Shown here in pieces: positions 1 through 64,000 of a DNA stretch of 64,000 bases (its first letter is position 1; each line of letters begins with the position of its first letter). The DNA is from Bilabrum cf. latius. Its lineage: Eukaryota. Location: positions 434,001 through 498,000 of the forward strand of contig OZ237739.1 of NCBI GenBank assembly GCA_965178125.1, given 5' to 3'. The position numbers and the translations under genes were made by a program. The notes under the pieces are model-generated. The model ran no database searches, had not been told where the DNA came from, and worked only from the letters and a program-made list of their open reading frames with translations.

Positions 1-1
1 G

Positions 2-3000
2 AGCCCCCGTGGCCGTCAAGCTCACGTTCGCCAGCACCGAGTCCGCGACCACCACGTCAAACACAGACGCGCCCGCCGACGCGATGGGCCGCAGCACAGT
101 CGAGAACAACAGAGAGTCCCCGCCGTCCACGTCAGATAGCACCGACGGAAGCAACACATCCGGCCGAGACAGGCCCTGCCCCGCCACCGTCAAAGTCACG
201 CTCGAGTTCGTCACGGCAGGCACCACGTCCAAGCTAGACACAGACGCGATCACGCTAGACGTCGACCCGGCCGCCGCGTCCCGAAGCACGCGCCCGCCCA
301 CCACCACCTCGATGGACTCGCTCACGCCATCCAGCGTGTCGTTGTTCACCATCGTGCACGGCCCGATCACCACCTCGCCCGTGCTGGCGTTCACGCTCGC
401 GTGCGGCGCGCTGCCCAGCAGTGACAGTGGCGTCACCAGCACGCCGCCGCACACCACGCGCAGCTTCGTCAGAGACGGCCCGCTCACGGACACCACCGAG
501 ATGCTCGCAGGGTCCAGCACGCCGTCGGGCCCGCCAGGACGCACGCGGATCACCACGTCCCTCGCCGTGCCCGCTGGCAATGCGGCGGCCACCACCACCT
601 CCACCGACTGGCCGCCCACCACGCTCGACGGACTCAGCGACGAGCTCAGGCTGCTGTCCGGCGTGCGCGCGTACATCTGCACCGCAGGATCCGCGTGCTG
701 CATCAGCACATCTGCCTCCGCTGCCACGCTCGCGTTGCGGGAGTCGCCCACATCGGGGTGCGACCACCACCGGGCAGACAGGCTCGCGTTCACGCTGCCG
801 CCAAGGTCGATGCTCGGCAGAAGCTCCACCTCCACCACCACCGACAACGAGTCGCCCACGTCCAGCCGAGGCCACACGATCACCGCGCCTGCAAGGCTGT
901 CCGCAGACACCCCGGATGCCGACGCAGATGCCGTGTCCGCTCCCGCGCGACGAGACCCGCCCTCGCTCCACGCCGGCTGCACCACGCCGTTCACCCACAC
1001 GCCAGACACCACGTACCTGCCGTCCAGCAGCGTCGAGTCCAGCAGCGTCACGTTGAACACAGACGCGGCCGATCCGCCCGCATGCCCCACCGTCATGGTG
1101 AAGTTCAGCTTGTCGCCGCCGTCCGTGTCCGTGAAGGCCACGGGGCTCACGCCGGGCGCTGCCAAAGACCCCTCCGATACCGTCAGCGTCACCACGCGAG
1201 ACACGGCCTCGCCGCCGCTCAGGTCAGACCCAGACACAGACGCCGTCGCATCCACGCCCACGCCGCCCTGCGCCGCCGCCGTGTTGCGGACCACGCCGCG
1301 CAGCACGATCTCCACGCCCTCCACAGTCAGCCCGTTGTCCGTGCCGGCGTTCGTCACGTCGCCCAGCTGCACCGTCGCCGTGCCGGCCGCCCCGTCCACG
1401 CTCCAGTGGGACGAGTTCAGGCCGCTCAGCGCGCCCGATCCGCCCGCAAGCGACGACGTCACGTTCGACCCGGACCCTGCCGTGGCTCGCACTGACACCA
1501 CCTCCAGCAGCTCCAGCACGTCCGCTCGAGACAGGCTCACGCTCACCCACGACCCCACCAGAGTGCCTTCCGCAAGCTACAGCACCGCCGTCAGCTCCAC
1601 CACCTGCCCCACCGCCACGCGCCCGGGACCCGCCACACTAGGATCCTCCACGCTCGCGTTCCACACCAATCCAGGACCAGGCACTGACACGGCCGTCGAC
1701 TCAGGCGCCTCGGAGCTCTCGTTCCGGCTCACCCCGTACGAGCTGCCCACCACCGGGTGCGAGCTCCACTCCACCCGCACGTCCGTTGGCACCGTCGTGC
1801 CAGATGCAGCCGCGTCCGTCAGACGCACGCGGTACACCAGCACAGAGCTGCTCACCACAGACTCCAACACGGCCCACTCGCCGCTCGTGCTGTGCCCGAT
1901 CACCGACCCGCTCGTCTCGCGGCTGTACCGCTCCGTCCCGTCCACCACCACAGACTCCACCACGTACGACGGGCCCGGCAGTGACGCGTCCACCAGCCGC
2001 ACCCAGTACGCCTGGTTGTATCCCGCGCCCTGCGTCGCGTTCACTACCACCACCATCTGCACCACGTCGCCTCCGTCGCCCACCGCGCTGGCAGGACTCA
2101 CAGACACAGACACATCCGGCTCCAGCACAGACAGGCTCGCCGACTCGGAGCTCATCGTCTCCTGCGTCACGAATGCCGCATCCACATCGATGCTGGCCCC
2201 GCGAGACACAGCGCTCACGTTCTCCACGGTCGCCTCCAGCACCACCTCCAGGATCTCCCCGGCGCCAGACACGCCCACGTCCCGGTCCACATTGCGCAGC
2301 ACGCACAGAGGCGCCCGGTACCACGACGCCAATGGACCGCCCAGACGCACCACAGACAGCCCGGACAGGTCATCCAGATACGACTGCACGCCAGACCCGC
2401 CCGACCCCACACCGCTGCAGCTCGACACCAGCACGCTGCTCGGCGACGAGTCAGTGCTGCCGTTCACCACCACGCGAGCCGACACCACCCGACGCAGACC
2501 GAGACCACTCACCAGCGACGATCCCGGCACAGACACGTTCAGCACCGCATCGCTCATGCGGGCTTCCGGCAGAGCCACGCTCACGTTCACAGTCACCACG
2601 CTGCCCACCACCACGTCCAGGCCGCCAGATGTCGCGCCGTCCGAAGACACAGACAGGCTCAACGATGGCGACCCCACGCTCAGCGACGATGCAGACGTGG
2701 TCGATACCACGGACTCGTTCCGGGACTCAGACGGGCTGGGATGGCTGCCCCACCGCACGCTCACGAAAGGCACAGGGTACGATGCCCCGGCCTCCACGTC
2801 CGACGACACAAGCACCTCCCACTGCACGGCCAGCACCTGACCCGCTCCCACCTCGCTCAGCACAAGCACCGCGTCGGCCAGCGACGCAGACCCGCCTGCC
2901 ACCAGCGACCCGTTCACCCACACGCGACCCACAGAGTACACCGGAGCCCCCGTGGCCGTCAAGCTCACGTTCGCCAGCACCGAGTCCGCAACCACCACGT

Positions 3001-6000
3001 CAAACACAGACGCGCCCGCCGACGCGATGGGCCGCAGCACAGTCGAGAACAACAGAGAGTCCCCGCCGTCCACGTCAGATAGCACCGACGGAAGCAACAC
3101 ATCCGGCCGAGACAGGCCCTGCCCCGCCACCGTCAAAGTCACGCTCGAGTTCGTCACGGCAGGCACCACGTCCAAGCTAGACACAGACGCGATCACGCTA
3201 GACGTCGACCCGGCCGCCGCGTCCCGAAGCACGCGCCCGCCCACCACCACCTCGATGGACTCGCTCACGCCATCCAGCGTGTCGTTATTCACCATCGTGC
3301 ACGGACCGATCACCACCTCGCCCGTGCTGGCGTTCACGCTCGCGTGCGGCGCGCTGCCCAGCAGAGACAGTGGCGTCACCAGCACGCCGCCGCACACCAC
3401 GCGCAGCTTCGTCAGAGACGGCCCGCTCACGGACACCACCGAGATGCTCGCAGGGTCCAGCACGCCGTCGGGCCCGCCAGGACGCACGCGGATCACCACG
3501 TCCCTCGCCGTGCCCGCTGGCAATGCGGCGGCCACCACCACCTCCACCGACTGGCCGCCCACCACGCTCGACGGACTCAGCGACGAGCTCAGGCTGCTGT
3601 CCGGCGTGCGCGCGTACATCTGCACCGCAGGATCCGCGTGCTGCATCAGCACATCTGCCTCCGCTGCCACGCTCGCGTTGCGGGAGTCGCCCACATCGGG
3701 GTGCGACCACCACCGGGCAGACAGGCTCGCGTTCACGCTGCCGCCAAGGTCGATGCTCGGCAGAAGCTCCACCTCCACCACCACCGACAACGAGTCGCCC
3801 ACGTCCAGCCGAGGCCACACGATCACCGCGCCTGCAAGGCTGTCCGCAGACACCCCGGAAGCCGACGCAGATGCCGCGTCCGCTCCCGCGCGACGAGACC
3901 CGCCCTCGCTCCACGCCGGCTGCACCACGCCGTTCACCCACACGCCAGACACCACGTACCTGCCGTCCAGCAGCGTCGAGTCCAGCAGCGTCACGTTGAA
4001 CACAGACGCGGCCGATCCGCCCGCATGCCCCACCGTCATGGTGAAGTTCAGCTTGTCGCCGCCATCCGTGTCCGTGAAGGCCACGGGGCTCACGCCGGGC
4101 GCTGCCAAAGACCCCTCCGATACCGTCAGCGTCACCACGCGAGACACGGCCTCGCCGCCGCTCAGGTCAGACCCAGACACAGACGCCGTCGCATCCACGC
4201 CCACGCCGCCCTGCGCCGCCGCCGTGTTGCGGACCACGCCGCGCAGCACGATCTCCACGCCCTCCACAGTCAGCCCGTTGTCCGTGCCGGCGTTCGTCAC
4301 GTCGCCCAGCTGCACCGTCGCCGTGCCGGCCGCCCCGTCCACGCTCCAGTGGGACGAGTTCAGACCGCTCAGCGCGCCCGATCCGCCCGCAAGCGACGAC
4401 GTCACGTTCGACCCGGACCCTGCCGTGGCTCGCACTGACACCACCTCCAGCAGCTCCAGCACGTCCGCTCGAGACAGGCTCACGCTCACCGACGACCCCA
4501 CCAGAGTGCCTTCCGCAAGCTACAGCACCGCCGTCAGCTCCACCACCTGCCCCACCGCCACGCGCCCGGGACCCGCCACACTAGGATCCTCCACGCTCGC
4601 GTTCCACACCAATCCAGGACCAGGCACTGACACGGCCGTCGACTCAGGCGCCTCGGAGCTCTCGTTCCGGCTCACCCCGTACGAGCTGCCCACCACCGGG
4701 TGCGAGCTCCACTCCACCCGCACGTCCGTCGGCACCGTCGTGCCAGATGCAGCCGCGTCCGTCAGACGCACGCGGTACACCAGCACAGAGCTGCTCACCA
4801 CAGACTCCAACACGGCCCACTCGCCGCTCGTGCTGTGCCCGATCACCGACCCGCTCGTCTCGCGGTTGTACCGCTCCGTCCCGTCCACCACCACAGACTC
4901 CACCACGTACGACGGGCCCGGCAGCGACGCGTCCACCAGCCGCACCCAGTACGCCTGGTTGTATCCCGCGCCCTGCGTCGCGTTCACTACCACCACCATC
5001 TGCACCACGTCGCCTCCGTCGCCCACCGCGCTGGCAGGACTCACAGACACAGACACATCCGGCTCCAGCACAGACAGGCTCGCCGACTCGGAGCTCATCG
5101 TCTCCTGCGTCACGAATGCCGCATCCACATCGATGCTGGCCCCGCGAGACACAGCGCTCACGTTCTCCACGGTCGCCTCCAGCACCACCTCCAGGATCTC
5201 CCCGGCGCCAGACACGCCCACGTCCCGGTCCACATTGCGCAGCACGCACAGAGGCGCCCGGTACCACGACGCCAATGGACCGCCCAGACGCACCACAGAC
5301 AGCCCGGACAGGTCATCCAGATACGACTGCACGCCAGACCCGCCCGACCCCACACCGCTGCAGCTCGACACCAGCACGCTGCTCGGCGACGAGTCAGTGC
5401 TGCCGTTCACCACCACGCGAGCCGACACCACCCGACGCAGACCGAGACCACTCACCAGCGACGATCCCGGCACAGACACGTTCAGCACCGCATCGCTCAT
5501 GCGGGCTTCCGGCAGAGCCACGCTCACGTTCACAGTCACCACGCTGCCCACCACCACGTCCAGGCCGCCAGATGTCGCGCCGTCCGAAGACACAGACAGG
5601 CTCAACGATGGCGACCCCACGCTCAGCGACGATGCAGACGTGGTCGATACCACGGACTCGTTTCGGGACTCAGACGGGCTGGGATGGCTGCCCCACCGCA
5701 CGCTCACGAAAGGCACAGGGTACGATGCCCCGGCCTCCACGTCCGACGACACAAGCACCTCCCACTGCACGGCCAGCACCTGACCCGCTCCCACCTCGCT
5801 CAGCACAAGCACCGCGTCGGCCAGCGACGCAGACCCGCCTGCCACCAGCGACCCGTTCACCCACACGCGACCCATAGAGTACACCGGAGCCCCCGTGGCC
5901 GTCAAGCTCACGTTCGCCAGCACCGAGTCCGCAACCACCACGTCAAACACAGACGCGCCCGCCGACGCGATGGGCCGCAGCACAGTCGAGAACAACAGAG

Positions 6001-9000
6001 AGTCCCCGCCGTCCACGTCAGATAGCACCGACGGAAGCAACACATCCGGCCGAGACAGGCCCTGCCCCGCCACCGTCAAAGTCACGCTCGAGTTCGTCAC
6101 GGCAGGCACCACGTCCAAGCTAGACACAGACGCGATCACGCTAGACGTCGACCCGGCCGCCGCGTCCCGAAGCACGCGCCCGCCCACCACCACCTCGATG
6201 GACTCGCTCACGCCATCCAGCGTGTCGTTGTTCACCATCGTGCACGGCCCGATCACCACCTCGCCCGTGCTGGCGTTCACGCTCGCGTGCGGCGCGCTGC
6301 CCAGCAGAGACAGTGGCGTCACCAGCACGCCGCCGCACACCACGCGCAGCTTCGTCAGAGACGGCCCGCTCACGGACACCACCGAGATGCTCGCAGGGTC
6401 CAGCACGCCGTCGGGCCCGCCAGGACGCACGCGGATCACCACGTCCCTCGCCGTGCCCGCTGGCAATGCGGCGGCCACCACCACCTCCACCGACTGGCCG
6501 CCCACCACGCTCGACGGACTCAGCGACGAGCTCAGGCTGCTGTCCGGCGTGCGCGCGTACATCTGCACCGCAGGATCCGCGTGCTGCATCAGCACATCCG
6601 CCTCCGCTGCCACGCTCGCGTTGCGGGAGTCGCCCACATCGGGGTGCGACCACCACCGGGCAGACAGGCTCGCGTTCACGCTGCCGCCAAGGTCGATGCT
6701 CGGCAGAAGCTCCACCTCCACCACCACCGACAACGAGTCGCCCACGTCCAGCCGAGGCCACACGATCACCGCGCCTGCAAGGCTGTCCGAAGACACCCCG
6801 GATGCCGACGCAGATGCCGCGTCCGCTCCCGCGCGACGAGACCCGCCCTCGCTCCACGCCGGCTGCACCACGCCGTTCACCCACACGCCAGACACCACGT
6901 ACCTGCCGTCCAGCAGCGTCGAGTCCAGCAGCGTCACGTTGAACACAGACGCGACCGATCCGCCCGCATGCCCCACCGTCATGGTGAAGTTCAGCTTGTC
7001 GCCGCCGTCCGTGTCCGTGAAGGCCACGGGGCTCACGCCGGGCGCTGCCAAAGACCCCTCCGATACCGTCAGCGTCACCACGCGAGACACGGCCTCGCCG
7101 CCGCTCAGGTCAGACCCAGACACAGACGCCGCCGCATCCACGCCCACGCCGCCCTGCGCCGCCGCCGTGTTGCGGACCACGCCGCGCAGCACGATCTCCA
7201 CGCCCTCCACAGTCAGCCCGTTGTCCGTGCCGGCGTTCGTCACGTCGCCCAGCTGCACCGTCGCCGTGCCGGCCGCCCCGTCCACGCTCCAGTGGGACGA
7301 GTTCAGACCGCTCAGCGCGCCCGATCCGCCCGCAAGCGACGACGTCACGTTCGACCCGGACCCTGCCGTGGCTCGCACTGACACCACCTCCAGCAGCTCC
7401 AGCACGTCCGCTCGAGACAGGCTCACGCTCACCGACGACCCCACCAGAGTGCCTTCCGCAAGCTACAGCACCGCCGTCAGCTCCACCACCTGCCCCACCG
7501 CCACGCGCCCGGGACCCGCCACACTAGGATCCTCCACGCTCGCGTTCCACACCAATCCAGGACCAGGCACTGACACGGCCGTCGACTCAGGCGCCTCGGA
7601 GCTCTCGTTCCGGCTCACCCCGTACGAGCTGCCCACCACCGGGTGCGAGCTCCACTCCACCCGCACGTCCGTCGGCACCGTCGTGCCAGATGCAGCCGCG
7701 TCCGTCAGACGCACGCGGTACACCAGCACAGAGCTGCTCACCACAGACTCCAACATGGCCCACTCGCCGCTCGTGCTGTGCCCGATCACCGACCCGCTCG
7801 TCTCGCGGTTGTACCGCTCCGTCCCGTCCACCACCACAGACTCCACCACGTACGACGGGCCCGGCAGCGACGCGTCCACCAGCCGCACCCAGTACGCCTG
7901 GTTGTATCCCGCGCCCTGCGTCGCGTTCACTACCACCACCATCTGCACCACGTCGCCTCCGTCGCCCACCGCGCTGGCAGGACTCACAGACACAGACACA
8001 TCCGGCTCCAGCACAGACAGGCTCGCCGACTCGGAGCTCATCGTCTCCTGCGTCACGAATGCCGCATCCACATCGATGCTGGCCCCGCGAGACACAGCGC
8101 TCACGTTCTCCACGGTCGCCTCCAGCACCACCTCCAGGATCTCCCCGGCGCCAGACACGCCCACGTCCCGGTCCACATTGCGCAGCACGCACAGAGGCGC
8201 CCGGTACCACGACGCCAATGGACCGCCCAGACGCACCACAGACAGCCCGGACAGGTCATCCAGATACGACTGCACGCCCGACCCGCCCGACCCCACACCG
8301 CTGCAGCTCGACACCAGCACGCTGCTCGGCGACGAGTCAGTGCTGCCGTTCACCACCACGCGAGCCGACACCACCCGACGCAGACCGAGACCACTCACCA
8401 GCGACGATCCCGGCACAGACACGTTCAGCACCGCATCGCTCATGCGGGCTTCCGGCAGCGCCACGCTCACGTTCACAGTCACCACGCTGCCCACCACCAC
8501 GTCCAGGCCGCCAGATGTCGCGCCGTCCGAAGACACAGACAGGCTCAACGATGGCGACCCCACGCTCAGCGACGATGCAGACGTGGTCGATACCACGGAC
8601 TCGTTTCGGGACTCAGACGGGCTGGGATGGCTGCCCCACCGCACGCTCACGAAAGGCACAGGGTACGATGCCCCGGCCTCCACGTCCGACGACACAAGCA
8701 CCTCCCACTGCACGGCCAGCACCTGACCCGCTCCCACCTCGCTCAGCACAAGCACCGCGTCGGCCAGCGACGCAGACCCGCCTGCCACCAGCGACCCGTT
8801 CACCCACACGCGACCCACAGAGTACACCGGAGCCCCCGTGGCCGTCAAGCTCACGTTCGCCAGCACCGAGTCCGCGACCACCACGTCAAACACAGACGCG
8901 CCCGCCGACGCGACGGGCCGCAGCACAGTCGAGAACAACAGAGAGTCCCCGCCGTCCACGTCAGATAGCACCGACGGAAGCAACACATCCGGCCGAGACA

Positions 9001-12000
9001 GGCCCTGCCCCGCCACCGTCAAAGTCACGCTCGAGTTCGTCACGGCAGGCACCACGTCCAAGCTAGACACAGACGCGATCACGCTAGACGTCGACCCGGC
9101 CGCCGCGTCCCGAAGCACGCGCCCGCCCACCACCACCTCGATGGACTCGCTCACGCCATCCAGCGTGTCGTTGTTCACCATCGTGCACGGCCCGATCACC
9201 ACCTCGCCCGTGCTGGCGTTCACGCTCGCGTGCGGCGCGCTGCCCAGCAGTGACAGTGGCGTCACCAGCACGCCGCCGCACACCACGCGCAGCTTCGTCA
9301 GAGACGGCCCGCTCACGGACACCACCGAGATGCTCGCAGGGTCCAGCACGCCGTCGGGCCCGCCAGGACGCACGCGGATCACCACGTCCCTCGCCGTGCC
9401 CGCTGGCAATGCGGCGGCCACCACCACCTCCACCGACTGGCCGCCCACCACGCTCGACGGACTCAGCGACGAGCTCAGGCTGCTGTCCGGCGTGCGCGCG
9501 TACATCTGCACCGCAGGATCCGCGTGCTGCATCAGCACATCCGCCTCCGCTGCCACGCTCGCGTTGCGGGAGTCGCCCACATCGGGGTGCGACCACCACC
9601 GGGCAGACAGGCTCGCGTTCACGCTGCCGCCAAGGTCGATGCTCGGCAGAAGCTCCACCTCCACCACCACCGACAACGAGTCGCCCACGTCCAGCCGAGG
9701 CCACACGATCACCGTGCCTGCAAGGCTCTCTGCAGACACCCCGGATGCCGACGCAGATGCCGCGTCCGCTCCCGCGCGACGAGACCCGCCCTCGCTCCAC
9801 GCCGGCTGCACCACGCCGTTCACCCACACGCCAGACACCACGTACCTGCCGTCCAGCAGCGTCGAGTCCAGCAGCGTCACGTTGAACACAGACGCGGCCG
9901 ATCCGCCCGCATGCCCCACCGTCATGGTGAAGTTCAGCTTGTCGCCGCCGTCCGTGTCCGTGAAGGCCACGGGGCTCACGCCGGGCGCTGCCAAAGACCC
10001 CTCCGATACCGTCAGCGTCACCACGCGAGACACGGCCTCGCCGCCGCTCAGGTCAGACCCAGACACAGACGCCGTCGCATCCACGCCCACGCCGCCCTGC
10101 GCCGCCGCCGTGTTGCGGACCACGCCGCGCAGCACGATCTCCACGCCCTCCACAGTCAGCCCGTTGTCCGTGCCGGCGTTCGTCACGTCGCCCAGCTGCA
10201 CCGTCGCCGTGCCGGCCGCCCCGTCCACGCTCCAGTGGGACGAGTTCAGACCGCTCAGCGCGCCCGATCCGCCCGCAAGCGACGACGTCACGTTCGACCC
10301 GGACCCTGCCGTGGCTCGCACTGACACCACCTCCAGCAGCTCCAGCACGTCCGCTCGAGACAGGCTCACGCTCACCGACGACCCCACCAGAGTGCCTTCC
10401 GCAAGCTACAGCACCGCCGTCAGCTCCACCACCTGCCCCACCGCCACGCGCCCGGGACCCGCCACACTAGGATCCTCCACGCTCGCGTTCCACACCAATC
10501 CAGGACCAGGCACTGACACGGCCGTCGACTCAGGCGCCTCGGAGCTCTCGTTCCGGCTCACCCCGTACGAGCTGCCCACCACCGGGTGCGAGCTCCACTC
10601 CACCCGCACGTCCGTCGGCACCGTCGTGCCAGATGCAGCCGCGTCCGTCAGACGCACGCGGTACACCAGCACAGAGCTGCTCACCACAGACTCCAACACG
10701 GCCCACTCGCCGCTCGTGCTGTGCCCGATCACCGACCCGCTCGTCTCGCGGCTGTACCGCTCCGTCCCGTCCACCACCACAGACTCCACCACGTACGACG
10801 GGCCCGGCAGCGACGCGTCCACCAGCCGCACCCAGTACGCCTGGTTGTATCCCGCGCCCTGCGTCGCGTTCACTACCACCACCATCTGCACCACGTCGCC
10901 TCCGTCGCCCACCGCGCTGGCAGGACTCACAGACACAGACACATCCGGCTCCAGCACAGACAGGCTCGCCGACTCGGAGCTCATCGTCTCCTGCGTCACG
11001 AATGCCGCATCCACATCGATGCTGGCCCCGCGAGACACAGCGCTCACGTTCTCCACGGTCGCCTCCAGCACCACCTCCAGGATCTCCCCGGCGCCAGACA
11101 CGCCCACGTCCCGGTCCACATTGCGCAGCACGCACAGAGGCGCCCGGTACCACGACGCCAATGGACCGCCCAGACGCACCACAGACAGCCCGGACAGGTC
11201 ATCCAGATACGACTGCACGCCCGACCCGCCCGACCCCACACCGCTGCAGCTCGACACCAGCACGCTGCTCGGCGACGAGTCAGTGCTGCCGTTCACCACC
11301 ACGCGAGCCGACACCACCCGACGCAGACCGAGACCACTCACCAGCGACGATCCCGGCACAGACACGTTCAGCACCGCATCGCTCATGCGGGCTTCCGGCA
11401 GAGCCACGCTCACGTTCACAGTCACCACGCTGCCCACCACCACGTCCAGGCCGCCAGATGTCGCGCCGTCCGAAGACACAGACAGGCTCAACGATGGCGA
11501 CCCCACGCTCAGCGACGATGCAGACGTGGTCGATACCACGGACTCGTTCCGGGACTCAGACGGGCTGGGATGGCTGCCCCACCGCACGCTCACGAAAGGC
11601 ACAGGGTACGATGCCCCGGCCTCCACGTCCGACGACACAAGCACCTCCCACTGCACGGCCAGCACCTGACCCGCTCCCACCTCGCTCAGCACAAGCACCG
11701 CGTCGGCCAGCGACGCAGACCCGCCTGCCACCAGCGACCCGTTCACCCACACGCGACCCACAGAGTACACCGGAGCCCCCGTGGCCGTCAAGCTCACGTT
11801 CGCCAGCACCGAGTCCGCGACCACCACGTCAAACACAGACGCGCCCGCCGACGCGATGGGCCGCAGCACAGTCGAGAACAACAGAGAGTCCCCGCCGTCC
11901 ACGTCAGATAGCACCGACGGAAGCAACACATCCGGCCGAGACAGGCCCTGCCCCGCCACCGTCAAAGTCACGCTCGAGTTCGTCACGGCAGGCACCACGT

Positions 12001-40900: not shown

Positions 40901-41100
40901 CCACAGAGTACACCGGAGCCCCCGTGGCCGTCAAGCTCACGTTCGCCAGCACCGAGTCCGCGACCACCACGTCAAACACAGACGCGCCCGCCGACGCGAC
41001 GGGCCGCAGCACAGTCGAGAACAACAGAGAGTCCCCGCCGTCCACGTCAGATAGCACCGACGGAAGCAACACATCCGGCCGAGACAGGCCCTGCCCCGCC
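23553..41100. repeat. Dimeric higher-order repeat (5886 bp = 2 units) within the array; boundaries approximate
   Basis: Diagnostic SNPs gtccgtTggc (~25331, 31217, 33873, 39759), ctcacAagc (~26057, 31943, 34599, 40485) and cccactAca (26368, 34910, 40796) occur in alternate units. Confidence 0.8.
31968..32167. other. Assembly gap (200 N, placeholder length)
   Basis: Run of exactly 200 N; repeat phase and reading frame shift across it. Confidence 0.99.
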
Positions 41101-53100: not shown

Positions 53101-56100
53101 CCCAGCAGAGACAGTGGCGTCACCAGCACGCCGCCGCACACCACGCGCAGCTTCGTCAGAGACGGCCCGCTCACGGACACCACCGAGATGCTCGCAGGGT
53201 CCAGCACGCCGTCGGGCCCGCCAGGACGCACGCGGATCACCACGTCCCTCGCCGTGCCCGCTGGCAATGCGGCGGCCACCACCACCTCCACCGACTGGCC
53301 GCCCACCACGCTCGACGGACTCAGCGACGAGCTCAGGCTGCTGTCCGGCGTGCGCGCGTACATCTGCACCGCAGGATCCGCGTGCTGCATCAGCACATCC
53401 GCCTCCGCTGCCACGCTCGCGTTGCGGGAGTCGCCCACATCGGGGTGCGACCACCACCGGGCAGACAGGCTCGCGTTCACGCTGCCGCCAAGGTCGATGC
53501 TCGGCAGAAGCTCCACCTCCACCACCACCGACAACGAGTCGCCCACGTCCAGCCGAGGCCACACGATCACCGCGCCTGCAAGGCTGTCCGCAGACACCCC
53601 GGATGCCGACGCAGATGCCGCGTCCGCTCCCGCGCGACGAGACCCGCCCTCGCTCCACGCCGGCTGCACCACGCCGTTCACCCACACGCCAGACACCACG
53701 TACCTGCCGTCCAGCAGCGTCGAGTCCAGCAGCGTCACGTTGAACACAGACGCGGCCGATCCGCCCGCATGCCCCACCGTCATGGTGAAGTTCAGCTTGT
53801 CGCCGCCGTCCGTGTCCGTGAAGGCCACGGGGCTCACGCCGGGCGCTGCCAAAGACCCCTCCGATACCGTCAGCGTCACCACGCGAGACACGGCCTCGCC
53901 GCCGCTCAGGTCAGACCCAGACACAGACGCCGTCGCATCCACGCCCACGCCGCCCTGCGCCGCCGCCGTGTTGCGGACCACGCCGCGCAGCACGATCTCC
54001 ACGCCCTCCACAGTCAGCCCATCGTCCGTGCCGGCGTTCGTCACGTCGCCCAGCTGCACCGTCGCCGTGCCGGCCGCCCCGTCCACGCTCCAGTGGGACG
54101 AGTTCAGACCGCTCAGCGCGCCCGATCCGCCCGCAAGCGACGACGTCACGTTCGACCCGGACCCTGCCGTGGCTCGCACTGACACCACCTCCAGCAGCTC
54201 CAGCACGTCCGCTCGAGACAGGCTCACGCTCACCGACGACCCCACCAGAGTGCCTTCCGCAAGCTACAGCACCGCCGTCAGCTCCACCACCTGCCCCACC
54301 GCCACGCGCCCGGGACCCGCCACACTAGGATCCTCCACGCTCGCGTTCCACACCAATCCAGGACCAGGCACTGACACGGCCGTCGACACAGGCGCCTCGG
54401 AGCTCTCGTTCCGGCTCACCCCGTACGAGCTGCCCACCACCGGGTGCGAGCTCCACTCCACCCGCACATCCGTCGGCACCGTCGTGCCAGATGCAGCCGC
54501 GTCCGTCAGACGCACGCGGTACACCAGCACAGAGCTGCTCACCACAGACTCCAACACGGCCCACTCGCCGCTCGTGCTGTGCCCGATCACCGACCCGCTC
54601 GTCTCGCGGTTGTACCGCTCCGTCCCGTCCACCACCACAGACTCCACCACGTACGACGGGCCCGGCAGCGACGCGTCCACCAGCCGCACCCAGTACGCCT
54701 GGTTGTATCCCGCGCCCTGCGTCGCGTTCACTACCACCACCATCTGCACCACGTCGCCTCCGTCGCCCACCGCGCTGGCAGGACTCACAGACACAGACAC
54801 ATCCGGCTCCAGCACAGACAGGCTCGCCGACTCGGAGCTCATCGTCTCCTGCGTCACGAATGCCGCATCCACATCGATGCTGGCCCCGCGAGACACAGCG
54901 CTCACGTTCTCCACGGTCGCCTCCAGCACCACCTCCAGGATCTCCCCGGCGCCAGACACGCCCACGTCCCGGTCCACATTGCGCAGCACGCACAGAGGCG
55001 CCCGGTACCACGACGCCAATGGACCGCCCAGACGCACCACAGACAGCCCGGACAGGTCATCCAGATACGACTGCACGCCAGACCCGCCCGACCCCACACC
55101 GCTGCAGCTCGACACCAGCACGCTGCTCGGCGACGAGTCAGTGCTGCCGTTCACCACCACGCGAGCCGACACCACCCGACGCAGACCGAGACCACTCACC
55201 AGCGACGATCCCGGCACAGACACGTTCAGCACCGCATCGCTCATGCGGGCTTCCGGCAGCGCCACGCTCACGTTCACAGTCACCACGCTGCCCACCACCA
55301 CGTCCAGGCCGCCAGATGTGACTGCATCCGTCACAATTGATAATTGCACAGATGGAGAACTTACCACGACATTGAACGGGTCTGAGGTTACAGACTCGTT
55401 TCGGGCCTCGGACGGGCTGGGATGGCTGCCCCACCGCACGCTCACAGCCGAAGGGTAGACTGCCCCGGCCTCCACGTCCGACGACACAAGTACCTCCCAC
55501 TGCACGGCCAGCACCTGACCCGCTCCCACCTCGCTCAGCACAAGCACCGCGTCGGCCAGCGACGCAGACCCGCCTGCCACCAGCGACCCGTTCACCCACA
55601 CGCGACCCACAGAGTACACCGGAGCCCCCGTGGCCGTCAAGCTCACGTTCGCCAGCACCGAGTCCGCAACCACCACGTCAAACACAGACGCGCCCGCCGA
55701 CGCGATGGGCCGCAGCACAGTCGAGAACAACATAGAGTCCCCGCCGTCCACGTCAGACAGCACCGACGGAAGCAACACATCCGGCCGAGACAGGCCCTGC
55801 CCCGCCACCGTCAAAGTCACGCTCGAGTTCGTCACGGCAGGCACCACGTCCAAGCTAGACACAGACGCGATCACGCTAGACGTCGACCCGGCCGCCGCGT
55901 CCCGAAGCACGCGCCCGCCCACCACCACCTCGATGGACTCGCTCACGCCATCCAGCGTGTCGTTGTTCACCATCGTGCACGGCCCGATCACCACCTCGCC
56001 CGTGCTGGCGTTCACGCTCGCGTGCGGCGCGCTGCCCAGCAGAGACAGTGGCGTCACCAGCACGCCGCCGCACACCACGCGCAGCTTCGTCAGAGACGGC

Positions 56101-59100
56101 CCGCTCACGGACACCACCGAGATGCTCGCAGGGTCCAGCACGCCGTCGGGCCCGCCAGGACGCACGCGGATCACCACGTCCCTCGCCGTGCCCGCTGGCA
56201 ATGCGGCGGCCACCACCACCTCCACCGACTGGCCGCCCACCACGCTCGACGGACTCAGCGACGAGCTCAGGCTGCTGTCCGGCGTGCGCGCGTACATCTG
56301 CACCGCAGGATCCGCGTGCTGCATCAGCACATCCGCCTCCGCTGCCACGCTCGCGTTGCGGGAGTCGCCCACGTCGGGGTGCGACCACCACCGGGCAGAC
56401 AGGCTCGCGTTCACGCTGCCGCCAAGGTCGATGCTCGGCAGAAGCTCCACCTCCACCACCACCGACAACGAGTCGCCCACGTCCAGCCGAGGCCACACGA
56501 TCACCGCGCCTGCAAGGCTGTCCGCAGACACCCCGGATGCCGACGCAGATGCCGCGTCCGCTCCCGCGCGACGAGACCCGCCCTCGCTCCACGCCGGCTG
56601 CACCACGCCGTTCACCCACACGCCAGACACCACGTACCTGCCGTCCAGCAGCGTCGAGTCCAGCAGCGTCACGTTGAACACAGACGCGGCCGATCCGCCC
56701 GCATGCCCCACCGTCATGGTGAAGTTCAGCTTGTCGCCGCCGTCCGTGTCCGTGAAGGCCACGGGGCTCACGCCGGGCGCTGCCAAAGACCCCTCCGATA
56801 CCGTCAGCGTCACCACGCGAGACACGGCCTCGCCGCCGCTCAGGTCAGACCCAGACACAGACGCCGTCGCATCCACGCCCACGCCGCCCTGCGCCGCCGC
56901 CGTGTTGCGGACCACGCCGCGCAGCACGATCTCCACGCCCTCCACAGTCAGCCCGTTGTCCGTGCCGGCGTTCGTCACGTCGCCCAGCTGCACCGTCGCC
57001 GTGCCGGCCGCCCCGTCCACGCTCCAGTGGGACGAGTTCAAGCCGCTCAGCGCGCCCGATCCGCCCGCAAGCGACGACGTCACGTTCGACCCGGACCCTG
57101 CCGTGGCTCGCACTGACACCACCTCCAGCAGCTCCAGCACGTCCGCTCGAGACAGGCTCACGCTCACCGATGACCCCACCAGAGTGCCTTCCGCAAGCTA
57201 CAGCACCGCCGTCAGCTCCACCACCTGCCCCACCGCCACGCGCCCGGGACCCGCCACACTAGGATCCTCCACGCTCGCGTTCCACACCAATCCAGGACCA
57301 GGCACTGACACGGCCGTCGACACAGGCGCCTCGGAGCTCTCGTTCCGGCTCACCCCGTACGAGCTGCCCACCACCGGGTGCGAGCTCCACTCCACCCGCA
57401 CGTCCGTCGGCACCGTCGTGCCAGATGCAGCCGCGTCCGTCAGACGCACGCGGTACACCAGCACAGAGCTGCTCACCACAGACTCCAACACGGCCCACTC
57501 GCCGCTCGTGCTGTGCCCGATCACCGACCCGCTCGTCTCGCGGTTGTACCGCTCCGTCCCGTCCACCACCACAGACTCCACCACGTACGACGGGCCCGGC
57601 AGCGACGCGTCCACCAGCCGCACCCAGTACGCCTGGTTGTATCCCGCGCCCTGCGTCGCGTTCACTACCACCACCATCTGCACCACGTCGCCTCCGTCGC
57701 CCACCGCGCTGGCAGGACTCACAGACACAGACACATCCGGCTCCAGCACAGACAGGCTCGCCGACTCGGAGCTCATCGTCTCCTGCGTCACGAATGCCGC
57801 ATCCACATCGATGCTGGCCCCGCGAGACACAGCGCTCACGTTCTCCACGGTCGCCTCCAGCACCACCTCCAGGATCTCCCCGGCGCCAGACACGCCCACG
57901 TCCCGGTCCACATTGCGCAGCACGCACAGAGGCGCCCGGTACCACGACGCCAATGGACCGCCCAGACGCACCACAGACAGCCCGGACAGGTCATCCAGAT
58001 ACGACTGCACGCCAGACCCGCCCGACCCCACACCGCTGCAGCTCGACACCAGCACGCTGCTCGGCGACGAGTCAGTGCTGCCGTTCACCACCACGCGAGC
58101 CGACACCACCCGACGCAGACCGAGACCACTCACCAGCGACGATCCCGGCACAGACACGTTCAGCACCGCATCGCTCATGCGGGCTTCCGGCAGCGCCACG
58201 CTCACGTTCACAGTCACCACGCTGCCCACCACCACGTCCAGGCCGCCAGATGTGACTGCATCCGTCACAATTGATAATTGCACAGATGGAGAACTTACCA
58301 CGACATTGAACGGGTCTGAGGTTACAGACTCGTTTCGGGCCTCGGACGGGCTGGGATGGCTGCCCCACCGCACGCTCACAGCCGAAGGGTAGACTGCCCC
58401 GGCCTCCACGTCCGACGACACAAGTACCTCCCACTGCACGGCCAGCACCTGACCCGCTCCCACCTCGCTCAGCACAAGCACCGCGTCGGCCAGCGACGCA
58501 GACCCGCCTGCCACCAGCGACCCGTTCACCCACACGCGACCCACAGAGTACACCGGAGCCCCCGTGGCCGTCAAGCTCACGTTCGCCAGCACCGAGTCCG
58601 CAACCACCACGTCAAACACAGACGCGCCCGCCGACGCGATGGGCCGCAGCACAGTCGAGAACAACATAGAGTCCCCGCCGTCCACGTCAGATAGCACCGA
58701 CGGAAGCAACACATCCGGCCGAGACAGGCCCTGCCCCGCCACCGTCAAAGTCACGCTCGAGTTCGTCACGGCAGGCACCACGTCCAAGCTAGACACAGAC
58801 GCGATCACGCTAGACGTCGACCCGGCCGCCGCGTCCCGAAGCACGCGCCCGCCCACCACCACCTCGATGGACTCGCTCACGCCATCCAGCGTGTCGTTGT
58901 TCACCATCGTGCACGGCCCGATCACCACCTCGCCCGTGCTGGCGTTCACGCTCGCGTGCGGCGCGCTGCCCAGCAGAGACAGTGGCGTCACCAGCACGCC
59001 GCCGCACACCACGCGCAGCTTCGTCAGAGACGGCCCGCTCACAGACACCACCGAGATGCTCGCAGGGTCCAGCACGCCGTCGGGCCCGCCAGGACGCACG

Positions 59101-60671
59101 CGGATCACCACGTCCCTCGCCGTGCCCGCTGGCAATGCGGCGGCCACCACCACCTCCACCGACTGGCCGCCCACCACGCTCGACGGACTCAGCGACGAGC
59201 TCAGGCTGCTGTCCGGCGTGCGCGCGTACATCTGCACCGCAGGATCCGCGTGCTGCATCAGCACATCCGCCTCCGCTGCCACGCTCGCGTTGCGGGAGTC
59301 GCCCACGTCGGGGTGCGACCACCACTGGGCAGACAGGCTCGCGTTCACGCTGCCGCCAAGGTCGATGCTCGGCAGAAGCTCCACCTCCACCACCACCGAC
59401 AACGAGTCGCCCACGTCCAGCCGAGGCCACACGATCACCGCGCCTGCAAGGCTGTCCGCAGACACCCCGGATGCCGACGCAGATGCCGCGTCCGCTCCCG
59501 CGCGACGAGACCCGCCCTCGCTCCACGCCGGCTGCACCACGCCGTTCACCCACACGCCAGACACCACGTACCTGCCGTCCAGCAGCGTCGAGTCCAGCAG
59601 CGTCACGTTGAACACAGACGCGGCCGATCCGCCCGCATGCCCCACCGTCATGGTGAAGTTCAGCTTGTCGCCGCCGTCCGTGTCCGTGAAGGCCACGGGG
59701 CTCACGCCGGGCGCTGCCAAAGACCCCTCCGATACCGTCAGCGTCACCACGCGAGACACGGCCTCGCCGCCGCTCAGGTCAGACCCAGACACAGACGCCG
59801 TCGCATCCACGCCCACGCCGCCCTGCGCCGCCGCCGTGTTGCGGACCACGCCGCGCAGCACGATCTCCACGCCCTCCACAGTCAGCCCGTTGTCCGTGCC
59901 GGCGTTCGTCACGTCGCCCAGCTGCACCGTCGCCGTGCCGGCCGCCCCGTCCACGCTCCAGTGGGACGAGTTCAGGCCGCTCAGCGCGCCCGATCCGCCC
60001 GCAAGCGACGACGTCACGTTCGACCCGGACCCTGCCGTGGCTCGCACTGACACCACCTCCAGCAGCTCCAGCACGTCCGCTCGAGACAGGCTCACGCTCA
60101 CCGATGACCCCACCAGAGTGCCTTCCGCAAGCTACAGCACCGCCGTCAGCTCCACCACCTGCCCCACCGCCACGCGCCCGGGACCCGCCACACTAGGATC
60201 CTCCACGCTCGCGTTCCACACCAATCCAGGACCAGGCACTGACACGGCCGTCGACACAGGCGCCTCGGAGCTATCGTTCCGGCTCACCCCGTACGAGCTG
60301 CCCACCACCGGGTGCGAGCTCCACTCCACCCGCACGTCCGTCGGCACCGTCGTGCCAGATGCAGCCGCGTCCGTCAGACGCACGCGGTACACCAGCACAG
60401 AGCTGCTCACCACAGACTCCAACACGGCCCACTCGCCGCTCGTGCTGTGCCCGATCACCGACCCGCTCGTCTCGCGGTTGTACCGCTCCGTCCCGTCCAC
60501 CACCACAGACTCCACCACGTACGACGGGCCCGGCATCGACGCGTCCACCAGCCGCACCCAGTACGCCTGGTTGTATCCCGCGCCCTGCGTCGCGTTCACT
60601 ACCACCACCATCTGCACCACGTCGCCTCCGTCGCCCACCGCGCTGGCAGGACTCACAGACACAGACACATC
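32169..60671 (-). CDS. Internal segment (9,501 codons) of the same giant repeat protein; 12 in-frame TAG, no TAA/TGA
   Basis: Same unit and one frame throughout (36606-39530, 42492-45416, 45435-48359, 48378-51302, 51321-54245, 54264-57179, 57198-60113). The only indels are 3 and 6 bp and keep the frame. Confidence 0.7.
55320..55460 (-). other. Diverged low-GC variant patch in a 2934-bp unit (copy 1)
   Basis: Encodes AVYPSAVSVRWGSHPSPSEARNESVTSDPFNVVVSSPSVQLSIVTDAVT in place of ASYPVPFVSVRWGSHPSPSESRNESVVSTTSASSLSVGSPSLSLSVSSDGAT. Confidence 0.95.
58254..58394 (-). other. Diverged low-GC variant patch in a 2934-bp unit (copy 2)
   Basis: Same patch as 55320-55460, 2934 bp downstream. Confidence 0.95.
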
Positions 60672-60673
60672 CG

Positions 60674-60873
60674 NNNNNNNNNNNNNNNNNNNNNNNNNNN
60701 NNNNNNNNNNNNNNNNNNNNNNNNNNNNNNNNNNNNNNNNNNNNNNNNNNNNNNNNNNNNNNNNNNNNNNNNNNNNNNNNNNNNNNNNNNNNNNNNNNNN
60801 NNNNNNNNNNNNNNNNNNNNNNNNNNNNNNNNNNNNNNNNNNNNNNNNNNNNNNNNNNNNNNNNNNNNNNNNN
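60674..60873. other. Assembly gap (200 N, placeholder length)
   Basis: Run of exactly 200 N; repeat phase shifts across it. Confidence 0.99.
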
Positions 60874-63800
60874 GTCCCCGCCGTCCACGTCAGATAGCAC
60901 CGACGGAAGCAACACATCCGGCCGAGACAGGCCCTGCCCCGCCACCGTCAAAGTCACGCTCGAGTTCGTCACGGCAGGCACCACGTCCAAGCTAGACACA
61001 GACGCGATCACGCTAGACGTCGACCCGGCCGCCGCGTCCCGAAGCACGCGCCCGCCCACCACCACCTCGATGGACTCGCTCACGCCATCCAGCGTGTCGT
61101 TATTCACCATCGTGCACGGACCGATCACCACCTCGCCCGTGCTGGCGTTCACGCTCGCGTGCGGCGCGCTGCCCAGCAGAGACAGTGGCGTCACCAGCAC
61201 GCCGCCGCACACCACGCGCAGCTTCGTCAGAGACGGCCCGCTCACGGACACCACCGAGATGCTCGCAGGGTCCAGCACGCCGTCGGGCCCGCCAGGACGC
61301 ACGCGGATCACCACGTCCCTCGCCGTGCCCGCTGGCAATGCGGCGGCCACCACCACCTCCACCGACTGGCCGCCCACCACGCTCGACGGACTCAGCGACG
61401 AGCTCAGGCTGCTGTCCGGCGTGCGCGCGTACATCTGCACCGCAGGATCCGCGTGCTGCATCAGCACATCTGCCTCCGCTGCCACGCTCGCGTTGCGGGA
61501 GTCGCCCACATCGGGGTGCGACCACCACCGGGCAGACAGGCTCGCGTTCACGCTGCCGCCAAGGTCGATGCTCGGCAGAAGCTCCACCTCCACCACCACC
61601 GACAACGAGTCGCCCACGTCCAGCCGAGGCCACACGATCACCGCGCCTGCAAGGCTGTCCGCAGACACCCCGGAAGCCGACGCAGATGCCGCGTCCGCTC
61701 CCGCGCGACGAGACCCGCCCTCGCTCCACGCCGGCTGCACCACGCCGTTCACCCACACGCCAGACACCACGTACCTGCCGTCCAGCAGCGTCGAGTCCAG
61801 CAGCGTCACGTTGAACACAGACGCGGCCGATCCGCCCGCATGCCCCACCGTCATGGTGAAGTTCAGCTTGTCGCCGCCATCCGTGTCCGTGAAGGCCACG
61901 GGGCTCACGCCGGGCGCTGCCAAAGACCCCTCCGATACCGTCAGCGTCACCACGCGAGACACGGCCTCGCCGCCGCTCAGGTCAGACCCAGACACAGACG
62001 CCGTCGCATCCACGCCCACGCCGCCCTGCGCCGCCGCCGTGTTGCGGACCACGCCGCGCAGCACGATCTCCACGCCCTCCACAGTCAGCCCGTTGTCCGT
62101 GCCGGCGTTCGTCACGTCGCCCAGCTGCACCGTCGCCGTGCCGGCCGCCCCGTCCACGCTCCAGTGGGACGAGTTCAGACCGCTCAGCGCGCCCGATCCG
62201 CCCGCAAGCGACGACGTCACGTTCGACCCGGACCCTGCCGTGGCTCGCACTGACACCACCTCCAGCAGCTCCAGCACGTCCGCTCGAGACAGGCTCACGC
62301 TCACCGACGACCCCACCAGAGTGCCTTCCGCAAGCTACAGCACCGCCGTCAGCTCCACCACCTGCCCCACCGCCACGCGCCCGGGACCCGCCACACTAGG
62401 ATCCTCCACGCTCGCGTTCCACACCAATCCAGGACCAGGCACTGACACGGCCGTCGACTCAGGCGCCTCGGAGCTCTCGTTCCGGCTCACCCCGTACGAG
62501 CTGCCCACCACCGGGTGCGAGCTCCACTCCACCCGCACGTCCGTCGGCACCGTCGTGCCAGATGCAGCCGCGTCCGTCAGACGCACGCGGTACACCAGCA
62601 CAGAGCTGCTCACCACAGACTCCAACACGGCCCACTCGCCGCTCGTGCTGTGCCCGATCACCGACCCGCTCGTCTCGCGGTTGTACCGCTCCGTCCCGTC
62701 CACCACCACAGACTCCACCACGTACGACGGGCCCGGCAGCGACGCGTCCACCAGCCGCACCCAGTACGCCTGGTTGTATCCCGCGCCCTGCGTCGCGTTC
62801 ACTACCACCACCATCTGCACCACGTCGCCTCCGTCGCCCACCGCGCTGGCAGGACTCACAGACACAGACACATCCGGCTCCAGCACAGACAGGCTCGCCG
62901 ACTCGGAGCTCATCGTCTCCTGCGTCACGAATGCCGCATCCACATCGATGCTGGCCCCGCGAGACACAGCGCTCACGTTCTCCACGGTCGCCTCCAGCAC
63001 CACCTCCAGGATCTCCCCGGCGCCAGACACGCCCACGTCCCGGTCCACATTGCGCAGCACGCACAGAGGCGCCCGGTACCACGACGCCAATGGACCGCCC
63101 AGACGCACCACAGACAGCCCGGACAGGTCATCCAGATACGACTGCACGCCAGACCCGCCCGACCCCACACCGCTGCAGCTCGACACCAGCACGCTGCTCG
63201 GCGACGAGTCAGTGCTGCCGTTCACCACCACGCGAGCCGACACCACCCGACGCAGACCGAGACCACTCACCAGCGACGATCCCGGCACAGACACGTTCAG
63301 CACCGCATCGCTCATGCGGGCTTCCGGCAGAGCCACGCTCACGTTCACAGTCACCACGCTGCCCACCACCACGTCCAGGCCGCCAGATGTCGCGCCGTCC
63401 GAAGACACAGACAGGCTCAACGATGGCGACCCCACGCTCAGCGACGATGCAGACGTGGTCGATACCACGGACTCGTTTCGGGACTCAGACGGGCTGGGAT
63501 GGCTGCCCCACCGCACGCTCACGAAAGGCACAGGGTACGATGCCCCGGCCTCCACGTCCGACGACACAAGCACCTCCCACTGCACGGCCAGCACCTGACC
63601 CGCTCCCACCTCGCTCAGCACAAGCACCGCGTCGGCCAGCGACGCAGACCCGCCTGCCACCAGCGACCCGTTCACCCACACGCGACCCATAGAGTACACC
63701 GGAGCCCCCGTGGCCGTCAAGCTCACGTTCGCCAGCACCGAGTCCGCAACCACCACGTCAAACACAGACGCGCCCGCCGACGCGATGGGCCGCAGCACAG

Positions 63801-63999
63801 TCGAGAACAACAGAGAGTCCCCGCCGTCCACGTCAGATAGCACCGACGGAAGCAACACATCCGGCCGAGACAGGCCCTGCCCCGCCACCGTCAAAGTCAC
63901 GCTCGAGTTCGTCACGGCAGGCACCACGTCCAAGCTAGACACAGACGCGATCACGCTAGACGTCGACCCGGCCGCCGCGTCCCGAAGCACGCGCCCGCC
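60874..63999 (-). CDS. Internal segment (1,042 codons) of the same repeat protein; one in-frame TAG at 62335-62337
   Basis: Same unit sequence after the second gap; matches 3059-6185. Confidence 0.65.
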
Positions 64000-64000
64000 C

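Follow-up and report, generated by a model that had tools for sequence, protein, structure and literature searches.

Do ribosomes stop at a TAG codon that recurs in frame in every unit of a giant repeat gene, or do they pass it? The question is raised by a stretch of 64,000 nucleotides (nt) of contig OZ237739.1 (assembly GCA_965178125.1, Bilabrum cf. latius, positions 434,001 to 498,000), hereafter the window, which from position 1 to 64000 consists of a single tandem array of a 2,943-nt (981-codon) coding unit on the minus strand, with 21 complete intervals, two partial units and both window ends open. The first-pass annotation of this stretch had proposed that UAG is either decoded as an amino acid or read through serially to give a ladder of products. 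The observation itself is real and not a chance pattern, and the sequence evidence leans towards translation through UAG. As a tentative preference, we suggest that UAG may be passed in translation, either as a sense codon or by efficient suppression. The more specific claim, that a lineage comprising the strain group of the window and a relative with 74% protein identity would decode nuclear UAG as an amino acid, with UGA and UAA remaining stops, is possible but doubtful.

The 24-nt word that follows the TAG was found in 22 copies, each preceded by an identical stretch of 33 nt ending in TAG, and the junction translates as GQVVELTAVL*LAEGTLVGS in 22 of 22 copies (the asterisk denotes TAG), in agreement with the initial claim that a TAG is followed by LAEGTLVG in each of 22 units. 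These junction TAGs are located on the minus strand at positions 62335-62337, 60132-60134, 57198-57200, 54264-54266, 51321-51323, 48378-48380, 45435-45437, 42492-42494, 39549-39551, 36606-36608, 33663-33665, 31007-31009, 28064-28066, 25121-25123, 22178-22180, 19235-19237, 16292-16294, 13349-13351, 10406-10408, 7463-7465, 4520-4522 and 1577-1579. Five additional in-frame TAGs on the same strand bring the number of in-frame stops to 27, all of which are TAG, as had been reported. Three of these are at codon 565 (40794-40796, 34908-34910 and 26366-26368), where 14 of the 17 full units have CAG, and two are at codon 957 (16361-16363 and 13418-13420), where 15 of the 17 full units have GAG. No in-frame TGA or TAA was identified outside two stretches broken by runs of N; the TGA and TAG codons that appear after these runs were rejected as frame artefacts of placeholder gaps. 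Within the 17 full units, TAG accounts for 22 of 16,677 codons (0.13%). That all stops are TAG is weaker evidence than it appears, because 143 of the 190 one-step nonsense paths (75%) in this codon composition yield TAG.

The junction TAG is located within a strand motif, G-x-x-V-x6-X-[VIL]-[PA]-E-[GA], which occurs twice more per unit, in the other sub-repeats, with Ala at position X both times. The motif was also recovered in 31 instances in the fetched homologues, where X is Thr (10 instances), Val (4), Ala (4), Glu (3), Ser (3), Ile (2) or, once each, His, Arg, Pro, Asn and Gln. Two homologues, P0007 and P0033, are uninterrupted at the equivalent site and have Ala and Ser, respectively. 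The recurrence of the motif with a sense residue in the sub-repeats and homologues confirms that the stop sits in the middle of a domain at a position otherwise occupied by an amino acid, and the position is polar and variable within a motif that is conserved. The sense codons at the four other TAG sites, of which two are in the window and two in the lineage of the 74% relative, likewise specify polar residues (Gln, Glu, Ser and Asp). A peptide spanning the junction would read VAVGQVVELTAVL-X-LAEGTLVGSSVSVSLSR, where X is the residue at the TAG.

Selection on the TAG-bearing units and origin of the codon

A dead array is expected to drift to a ratio of non-synonymous to synonymous substitution rates (dN/dS) of about 1 and to gather frameshifts. 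The 17 full units differ from each other by on average 14.6 nt per pair (0.50%), with 63 changes distributed over 62 variable columns. We found that 36 of the 63 changes are synonymous, as compared to 20.0 +/- 3.5 in a null model in which the same base changes were distributed randomly among sites of equal base and CpG status, and none of 5,000 simulations reached 36; the counting takes the majority base to be ancestral, which is a rough assumption. Third codon positions contain 37 of the changes versus 20.6 expected, and the same 63 changes include 8 and 12 synonymous ones when read in the two other frames. Variants shared between units have a ratio of synonymous to non-synonymous changes of 20:11 (P = 0.0002). 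Seven polymorphic sites were polarised by comparison to a relative, and the five derived changes that were specific to individual units are all synonymous. By our own arithmetic, the 25 missense changes occur at about 0.3 of the synonymous rate, and there are two TAG-creating changes within the array, as compared to a neutral expectation of 0.97 (two events only).

No frameshift was identified in the 17 full units, in the two units of variant length or in the flanks of the N gaps. The pattern of change among the units is thus not the neutral one of a dead array, and plain decay fits poorly because there is purifying selection among TAG-bearing units and no frameshift. The nearest variable sites lie at a distance from the TAG (155 nt in all) that is usual for this array, and there is consequently no sign of a recent local sweep. 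One caveat on the constraint tests is provided by a diverged linker patch in two neighbouring units, which shows that a unit can acquire tracts from other copies.

We compared the region to sequences from public runs by aligning contigs of four runs (X1, X2, X11 and X20) to 2.8 kb around the junction at 4520-4522, where X1 and X2 have TAG and X11 and X20 have GAG. In X1 and X2, whose status as RNA is a guess only, the unit was assembled as a self-closing contig of 2,973 nt with the TAG kept in both. A relative with ~97% identity is present both in run X11, a marine metagenome (54 differences over 1,972 nt and a further 28 over 816 nt), and in run X20, a seawater metatranscriptome (with 12 of 30 bins uncovered). 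The base at window position 4522 is C in the ~97% relative versus A here, which gives GAG (Glu) on the minus strand. Because the ~97% relative reads GAG at the junction site, the TAG is derived and, as judged from the aligned sequences, arose recently from a Glu codon by a G>T change. Among the 40 differences to this relative that were listed, out of 79 in total, 23 codon changes are synonymous and 8 are non-synonymous. The contig from X20 passes the junction site without a gap and with no joint reported, and the region is therefore present in an RNA library and unspliced there in the relative. The most parsimonious scenario is descent of all present units from a single unit that already had the TAG, followed by divergence, because all 22 carry the TAG and the difference of 0.50% among them is far below the ~2.7% that separates them from the GAG-bearing relative.

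The codon that precedes the junction TAG (window 4523-4525, minus strand) is CTG here and GTG in the ~97% relative. The changes to CTG and TAG, 3 nt apart on one lineage, are perhaps a single multi-nucleotide event.

The 74% relative is represented by L001 (1-3079), a metagenome contig that is a collapsed repeat and overlaps itself exactly with a period of 2,952 nt. The first-pass annotation had pointed to the residue at this site in related arrays as informative; it is Glu (GAG) in the ~97% relative and Ala (GCA) in L001, and neither has TAG there. L001 has two in-frame stops of its own, both TAG, located opposite GAT (Asp) and TCG (Ser) in the window and thus at positions that differ from those of the window TAGs, and it has no TGA or TAA. 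Three gene calls from three contigs and two sources (P0002, P0007 and P0031) have ends or starts that fit the TAG opposite GAT, and P0002 has sense residues at the second L001 site. The comparison of the window to L001 yielded a dN/dS of 0.44 at a dS of 0.54, with all indels in frame and with 229, 173 and 344 differences at codon positions 1, 2 and 3. Altogether, there are five independent TAG sites over two lineages and no TGA, TAA or frameshift; in-frame UAG at aligned sense positions under selection was seen in one gene family and two lineages.

Possible passage through UAG and rival explanations

If UAG is passed, the array would be live coding sequence for a giant, extracellular, sequon-rich glycoprotein made of DUF11-like beta-domain repeats, in a marine eukaryote that is rich in guanine and cytosine (GC) and of Cafeteria-like composition. 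A G>T change in the ancestral unit of the present array would have converted the GAG of a surface-exposed Glu to TAG, at which ribosomes would not stop. The UAG would then be read as an amino acid, most likely Glu or Gln, by a UAG-decoding or suppressor tRNA combined with weakened recognition of UAG by eRF1, or by an equivalent leakiness at UAG throughout the organism, and TAG would act as a rare sense codon. We infer the passage past the TAG, its mechanism and the residue. Decoding of UAG would explain the constraint, the lack of frameshifts, the TAG-only pattern, the polar sites and the recurrence in a second lineage. The proposal that UAG is an amino acid codon is thus partly supported, in that the array behaves like translated coding sequence, with a synonymous excess, no frameshift and TAGs in a second lineage, but a nonsense mutation spread by concerted evolution stays live as an explanation. 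We know of pyrrolysine only from archaea and bacteria, and it was set aside here because the features are eukaryotic (a nuclear Cafeteria homologue, sequons, and a homologue with TSP1 and EGF matches). ARAGORN identified no tRNA genes within the 64-kb window. For comparison with the TAG frequency of 0.13%, reassigned stop codons with a usage as low as 0.04-0.12% have been reported (PMC4967479).

A nonsense mutation can spread through a tandem array by concerted evolution, and under the standard code the junction TAG could be such a homogenised allele, an explanation that we rank second and regard as a serious possibility. A GAG>TAG change in one unit would have been spread by unequal crossing-over or gene conversion; the protein would end at the first TAG, and the rest would be an untranslated recent remnant or a sheltered null allele. 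Several observations support this explanation or weigh against passage through UAG. The nearest relative has GAG, and a young and derived TAG has the look of a nonsense mutation; RNA contigs across the site come only from that GAG-bearing relative. The extra TAGs at codons 565 and 957, present in subsets of the units, could reflect an accumulation of nonsense mutations. In this composition a nonsense mutation is expected to yield TAG, and by our own arithmetic the chance that five of five sites are TAG is about 0.24. The singletons, which are the youngest changes, have a ratio of 16:16 synonymous to non-synonymous changes, indicative of weaker constraint (P = 0.024 versus neutral). Two proteins from another contig of the same organism, P0001 and P0003, end in frameshifted readings of the variant linker patch, which are either sequencing or assembly indel errors or truly decaying units outside the window. 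The identical unit pairs and higher-order patterns described below speak for a fast turnover of the array. Our literature searches found no nuclear code change, UAG reassignment included, reported for a bicosoecid or stramenopile. Cafeteria was annotated under the standard nuclear code with BUSCO values of 82-84% (PMC6972860), and a screen of 265 non-ciliate eukaryote transcriptomes is reported to have found no new code (PMC4967479). Against the homogenised allele stands foremost the synonymous bias among the units, which no simulation reached. Furthermore, indels at an assumed 5-15% of substitutions would have given 3-8 frameshifts where none was observed, with a probability of 0.05 to 0.0003 for zero. 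A G>T change is GC-to-AT and would by our reasoning not be favoured by GC-biased conversion, the spacing of variable sites around the TAG gives no sign of a local sweep, and the second lineage has other in-frame TAGs at a dN/dS of 0.44. The caveat in the first-pass annotation, that concerted evolution can spread one nonsense mutation through a dead array, is therefore strengthened by the GAG of the nearest relative, which makes the TAG recent, and opposed by the constraint and the lack of frameshifts.

The remaining explanations are far less probable. Correction at the level of RNA, in which the UAG is edited in the mRNA, for example by adenosine-to-inosine (A-to-I) change to UGG (Trp) as in filamentous ascomycetes, would be compatible with constraint on the TAG-bearing units and with the presence of TAG to the exclusion of TGA and TAA. 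To our knowledge, restorative UAG editing is confined to ascomycetes; local RNA folds at the five TAG sites are no better than those of shuffled sequences (z from -0.32 to +0.83), and the contigs of X1 and X2 are unchanged at the codon, with the reservation that contigs drop minor variants. We consider editing improbable, even though the fungal A-to-I system prefers U at position -1 and thus targets UAG and UAA (PMC11156358). Programmed readthrough specific to this gene, with a ladder of products in steps of 981 amino acids (aa), is equally improbable. It would agree with the C that follows the junction TAG and with the constraint that persists downstream of it, but the 3' contexts of the five TAG sites differ (CTT, TGG, GAT, GTG and GTG), and the C at +4 that had been put forward as a leaky context is found only at the junction, with T, G, G and G at the other four sites. 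Folding of the 120 nt downstream of the junction TAG was not better than that of shuffled sequences (z = 0.64), and a search of window bases 1-9000 against Rfam gave no match; neither a conserved 3' context nor a stimulatory RNA structure was thus found. Moreover, simple arithmetic shows that at least 22 serial stops leave almost no long product if the efficiency is well below 1, and readthrough would therefore leave the selection on distal units unexplained. On these grounds the ladder idea is unsupported. An artefact of assembly, polishing or frame choice, that is, a consensus error or a gene on the other strand, could be suspected from the two N gaps, the two identical unit pairs and a plus-strand mirror open reading frame (ORF) with third positions in phase. 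We hold this to be even less credible, as the independent runs X1 and X2 keep the TAG in their self-closing contig, and the gene calls and 27 homologues back the minus frame. Least probable of all, and in our view next to negligible, is a tiny in-frame intron of 27 nt that ends in the TAG and is spliced out. The segment has GT...AG ends and a length divisible by three, but it encodes the strand motif that is kept in the sub-repeats and in the 31 homologue instances, the metatranscriptome contig of the relative runs through the 27 nt without a gap, and nothing similar, with GT...AG ends and a length that keeps the frame, is present at the other four TAG sites. The mini-intron was rejected because of the conserved motif in the segment and the colinear RNA contig of the relative.

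The array and the encoded protein

The GC content is 68-69% across the whole window, and Tandem Repeats Finder identified a short internal repeat that recurs each 2,943 nt. A representative unit (1577-4519, minus strand) contains 980 sense codons and the TAG at 1577-1579. It is composed of three sub-repeats of approximately 317-332 aa each with a mutual identity of 29-30%, and its first Met is residue 161; neither the gene start, a signal peptide nor the gene end is located in the window. The GC content at codon positions 1, 2 and 3 is 0.68, 0.54 and 0.85 in one minus-strand unit, values that are usual for coding sequence in a GC-rich genome. The period had been described as exactly 981 codons, which is correct for 17 of the 21 junction intervals (2,943 nt), whereas two intervals are 2,934 nt (978 codons) and two are shortened by gaps to 2,203 and 2,656 nt. 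The latter two each contain one 200-N assembly gap within the unit (60674-60873 and 31968-32167), the flanks of which can be aligned to the consensus unit with no indels.

The two 2,934-nt units are neighbours and share the diverged linker patch mentioned above, at approximately 58265-58394 in one and 55331-55460 in the other, both on the minus strand. The patch is about 130-150 nt long, in frame, with a net change of -9 nt and a lower GC content, and it is the only length variant among the units; its appearance is that of a conversion tract that originated in a divergent copy elsewhere. The units starting at 39548 and 36605 and those starting at 31006 and 28063 form two identical pairs (0 differences) that flank the unit containing the gap at 31968-32167. 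They reflect either a recent segmental duplication of three units or an assembly effect at the gap. Alternating patterns of variants between units suggest higher-order repeats. The contig of the same organism that encodes P0001 and P0003 is 9.1 kb long and also encodes P0004. None of these three proteins has an exact counterpart in the window, and P0004 likewise ends in a frameshifted reading of the variant patch; P0006 and P0032 from that contig are exact window products.

On the plus strand, a mirror ORF (for example 2841-5783) is open for 980 codons per unit and would encode a product rich in Thr, Ser, Pro and Ala. It results from the 85% GC at third positions of the real frame and can mislead gene callers. 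As a candidate for the coding frame it was rejected: it has one TGA per unit, its Thr-, Ser- and Pro-rich product is of low complexity, and it shows a reversed order of changes, with 173 at its position 1 and 229 at its position 2.

The unit encoded in the window gave no match to any Pfam family at any threshold, and none was obtained for the 22 aligned members. The model of DUF11 (PF01345) did not match the window protein at the gathering score, and a profile search against PDB sequences gave no match at E <= 1. Nineteen of the 26 Asn residues per unit are located in N-x-S/T sequons, as compared to 5.5 +/- 2.0 in 5,000 shuffled sequences (maximum 13), and this is also the case for 18 of 25 Asn residues in the 74% relative; the enrichment is that of a eukaryotic secreted N-glycoprotein. 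The protein is acidic, with 93 Asp and Glu versus 42 Lys and Arg. Each unit contains four Cys residues (376, 407, 701 and 739), all of which are retained in the 74% relative.

A HMMER search of 1.84 billion representatives identified 27 relatives. The single named homologue, from Cafeteria roenbergensis, is a hypothetical protein that has 40% identity and is encoded on a nuclear contig. Another relative is a protein of 4,424 aa with weak TSP1 and EGF matches, and P0028, a remote match at the edge of detection, is a bacterial DUF11 protein in which the strand motif occurs four times. The look-alikes of homologue P0033 in the ESM Atlas are DUF11 clusters at 0.95. Three relatives, P0014, P0015 and P0023, are proteins from NCBI metagenome-assembled genomes (MAGs) of Mesoflavibacter sp. 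and Desulfobacteraceae bacterium, and each fills a contig of 1-2 kb; these are probably eukaryotic contigs that were binned into bacterial MAGs. Other protein searches yielded 2 relatives among 8,000 scored candidates, 1 among 3,087 longer proteins and 4 among 8,000. No annotated protein close to the array was found in the protein collection searched, and none of 77 pattern matches in prokaryote species genomes and none of 46 in viral contigs were confirmed as relatives. The protein searches recovered no ORF spanning several units from the GAG-bearing relative, probably as a result of repeat collapse in short-read assemblies. The sequence itself was detected in 20 public runs from 14 studies, including marine, seawater, protist and algae metagenomes.

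On the basis of its sequence, we interpret the product as a giant repeat protein, glycosylated and DUF11-like, that is secreted or located at the surface of a marine eukaryote with a GC-rich genome. The host is possibly a bicosoecid-like flagellate; Cafeteria genomes are stated to have a GC content of 70-71% (PMC6972860). Bacterial and archaeal DUF11 (PF01345) surface proteins and giant repeat adhesins have the same strand motif at the start of their domains. The window protein differs from these in that it has no Pfam match and in that its setting is eukaryotic, as indicated by the sequons, the homologue with TSP1 and EGF matches and the Cafeteria homologue.

Comparison to known systems and implications

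UAG-only nuclear reassignments include those of Iotanema spirale (UAG=Gln), the rhizarian exLh (UAG=Leu) and phyllopharyngean ciliates (UAG=Leu or Gln), and the eRF1 motifs for stop recognition are given as GTS, NIKS and YxCxxxF (PMC5304391, with PMC11687900 for the reassignments). The array resembles these systems in that UAG alone is in frame, at sense positions under selection, with UAA and UGA absent. However, the known cases rest on many conserved genes, on terminal stop usage and in part on changes in tRNAs or eRF1, as compared to one gene family in two lineages here. Other differences are that the organism of the array is GC-rich and not a ciliate, and that at the main site an ordinary GAG is found in the nearest relative. 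A second comparison concerns stop codons decoded at low frequency. One study (PMC4967479) describes a reassigned UGA that makes up 0.04-0.12% of codons, as well as stops in Condylostoma and Parduczia that depend on context; in these cases, as here, the "stop" would be a rare sense codon at about 0.1% of codons and a dN/dS below 1 was likewise used as an argument against pseudogenes. Those cases differ from the array in that they come from ciliates and from essential single-copy genes with ribosome profiling and mass spectrometry.

Nonsense mutations spread by concerted evolution provide a third comparison, to which the identical stop in every unit, the young and derived state and the fast turnover conform; unlike a dead array, for which a dN/dS near 1 and frameshifts are expected, the window units show neither. 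The editing of ascomycetes is similar in that an in-frame UAG in the DNA, the preferred target being TAG, is there compatible with a full-length protein, but this editing is reported to be fungal, stage-specific and bound to hairpin loops, and no hairpin signal was seen at the TAG sites of the window.

The two leading explanations have different implications. If the TAG is a homogenised nonsense allele, this would be a clean case in which concerted evolution has fixed a stop across all units of an array exceeding 64 kb, ordinary in kind save for the unexplained residual constraint. If UAG is translated, this would add an independent case of UAG-only reassignment in a nuclear genome, outside the ciliates and at a very high GC content (~69%), in a marine heterotroph of Cafeteria-like affinity. 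Most known stop reassignments sit in AT-rich genomes, and for this reason a UAG that is read here would bear on the capture and ambiguity models of code change. Gene finders that use the standard code would miss or break such genes. Since the sequence is present in 20 runs from 14 studies, among them culture and seawater sets, the organism may be culturable and open to experiment.

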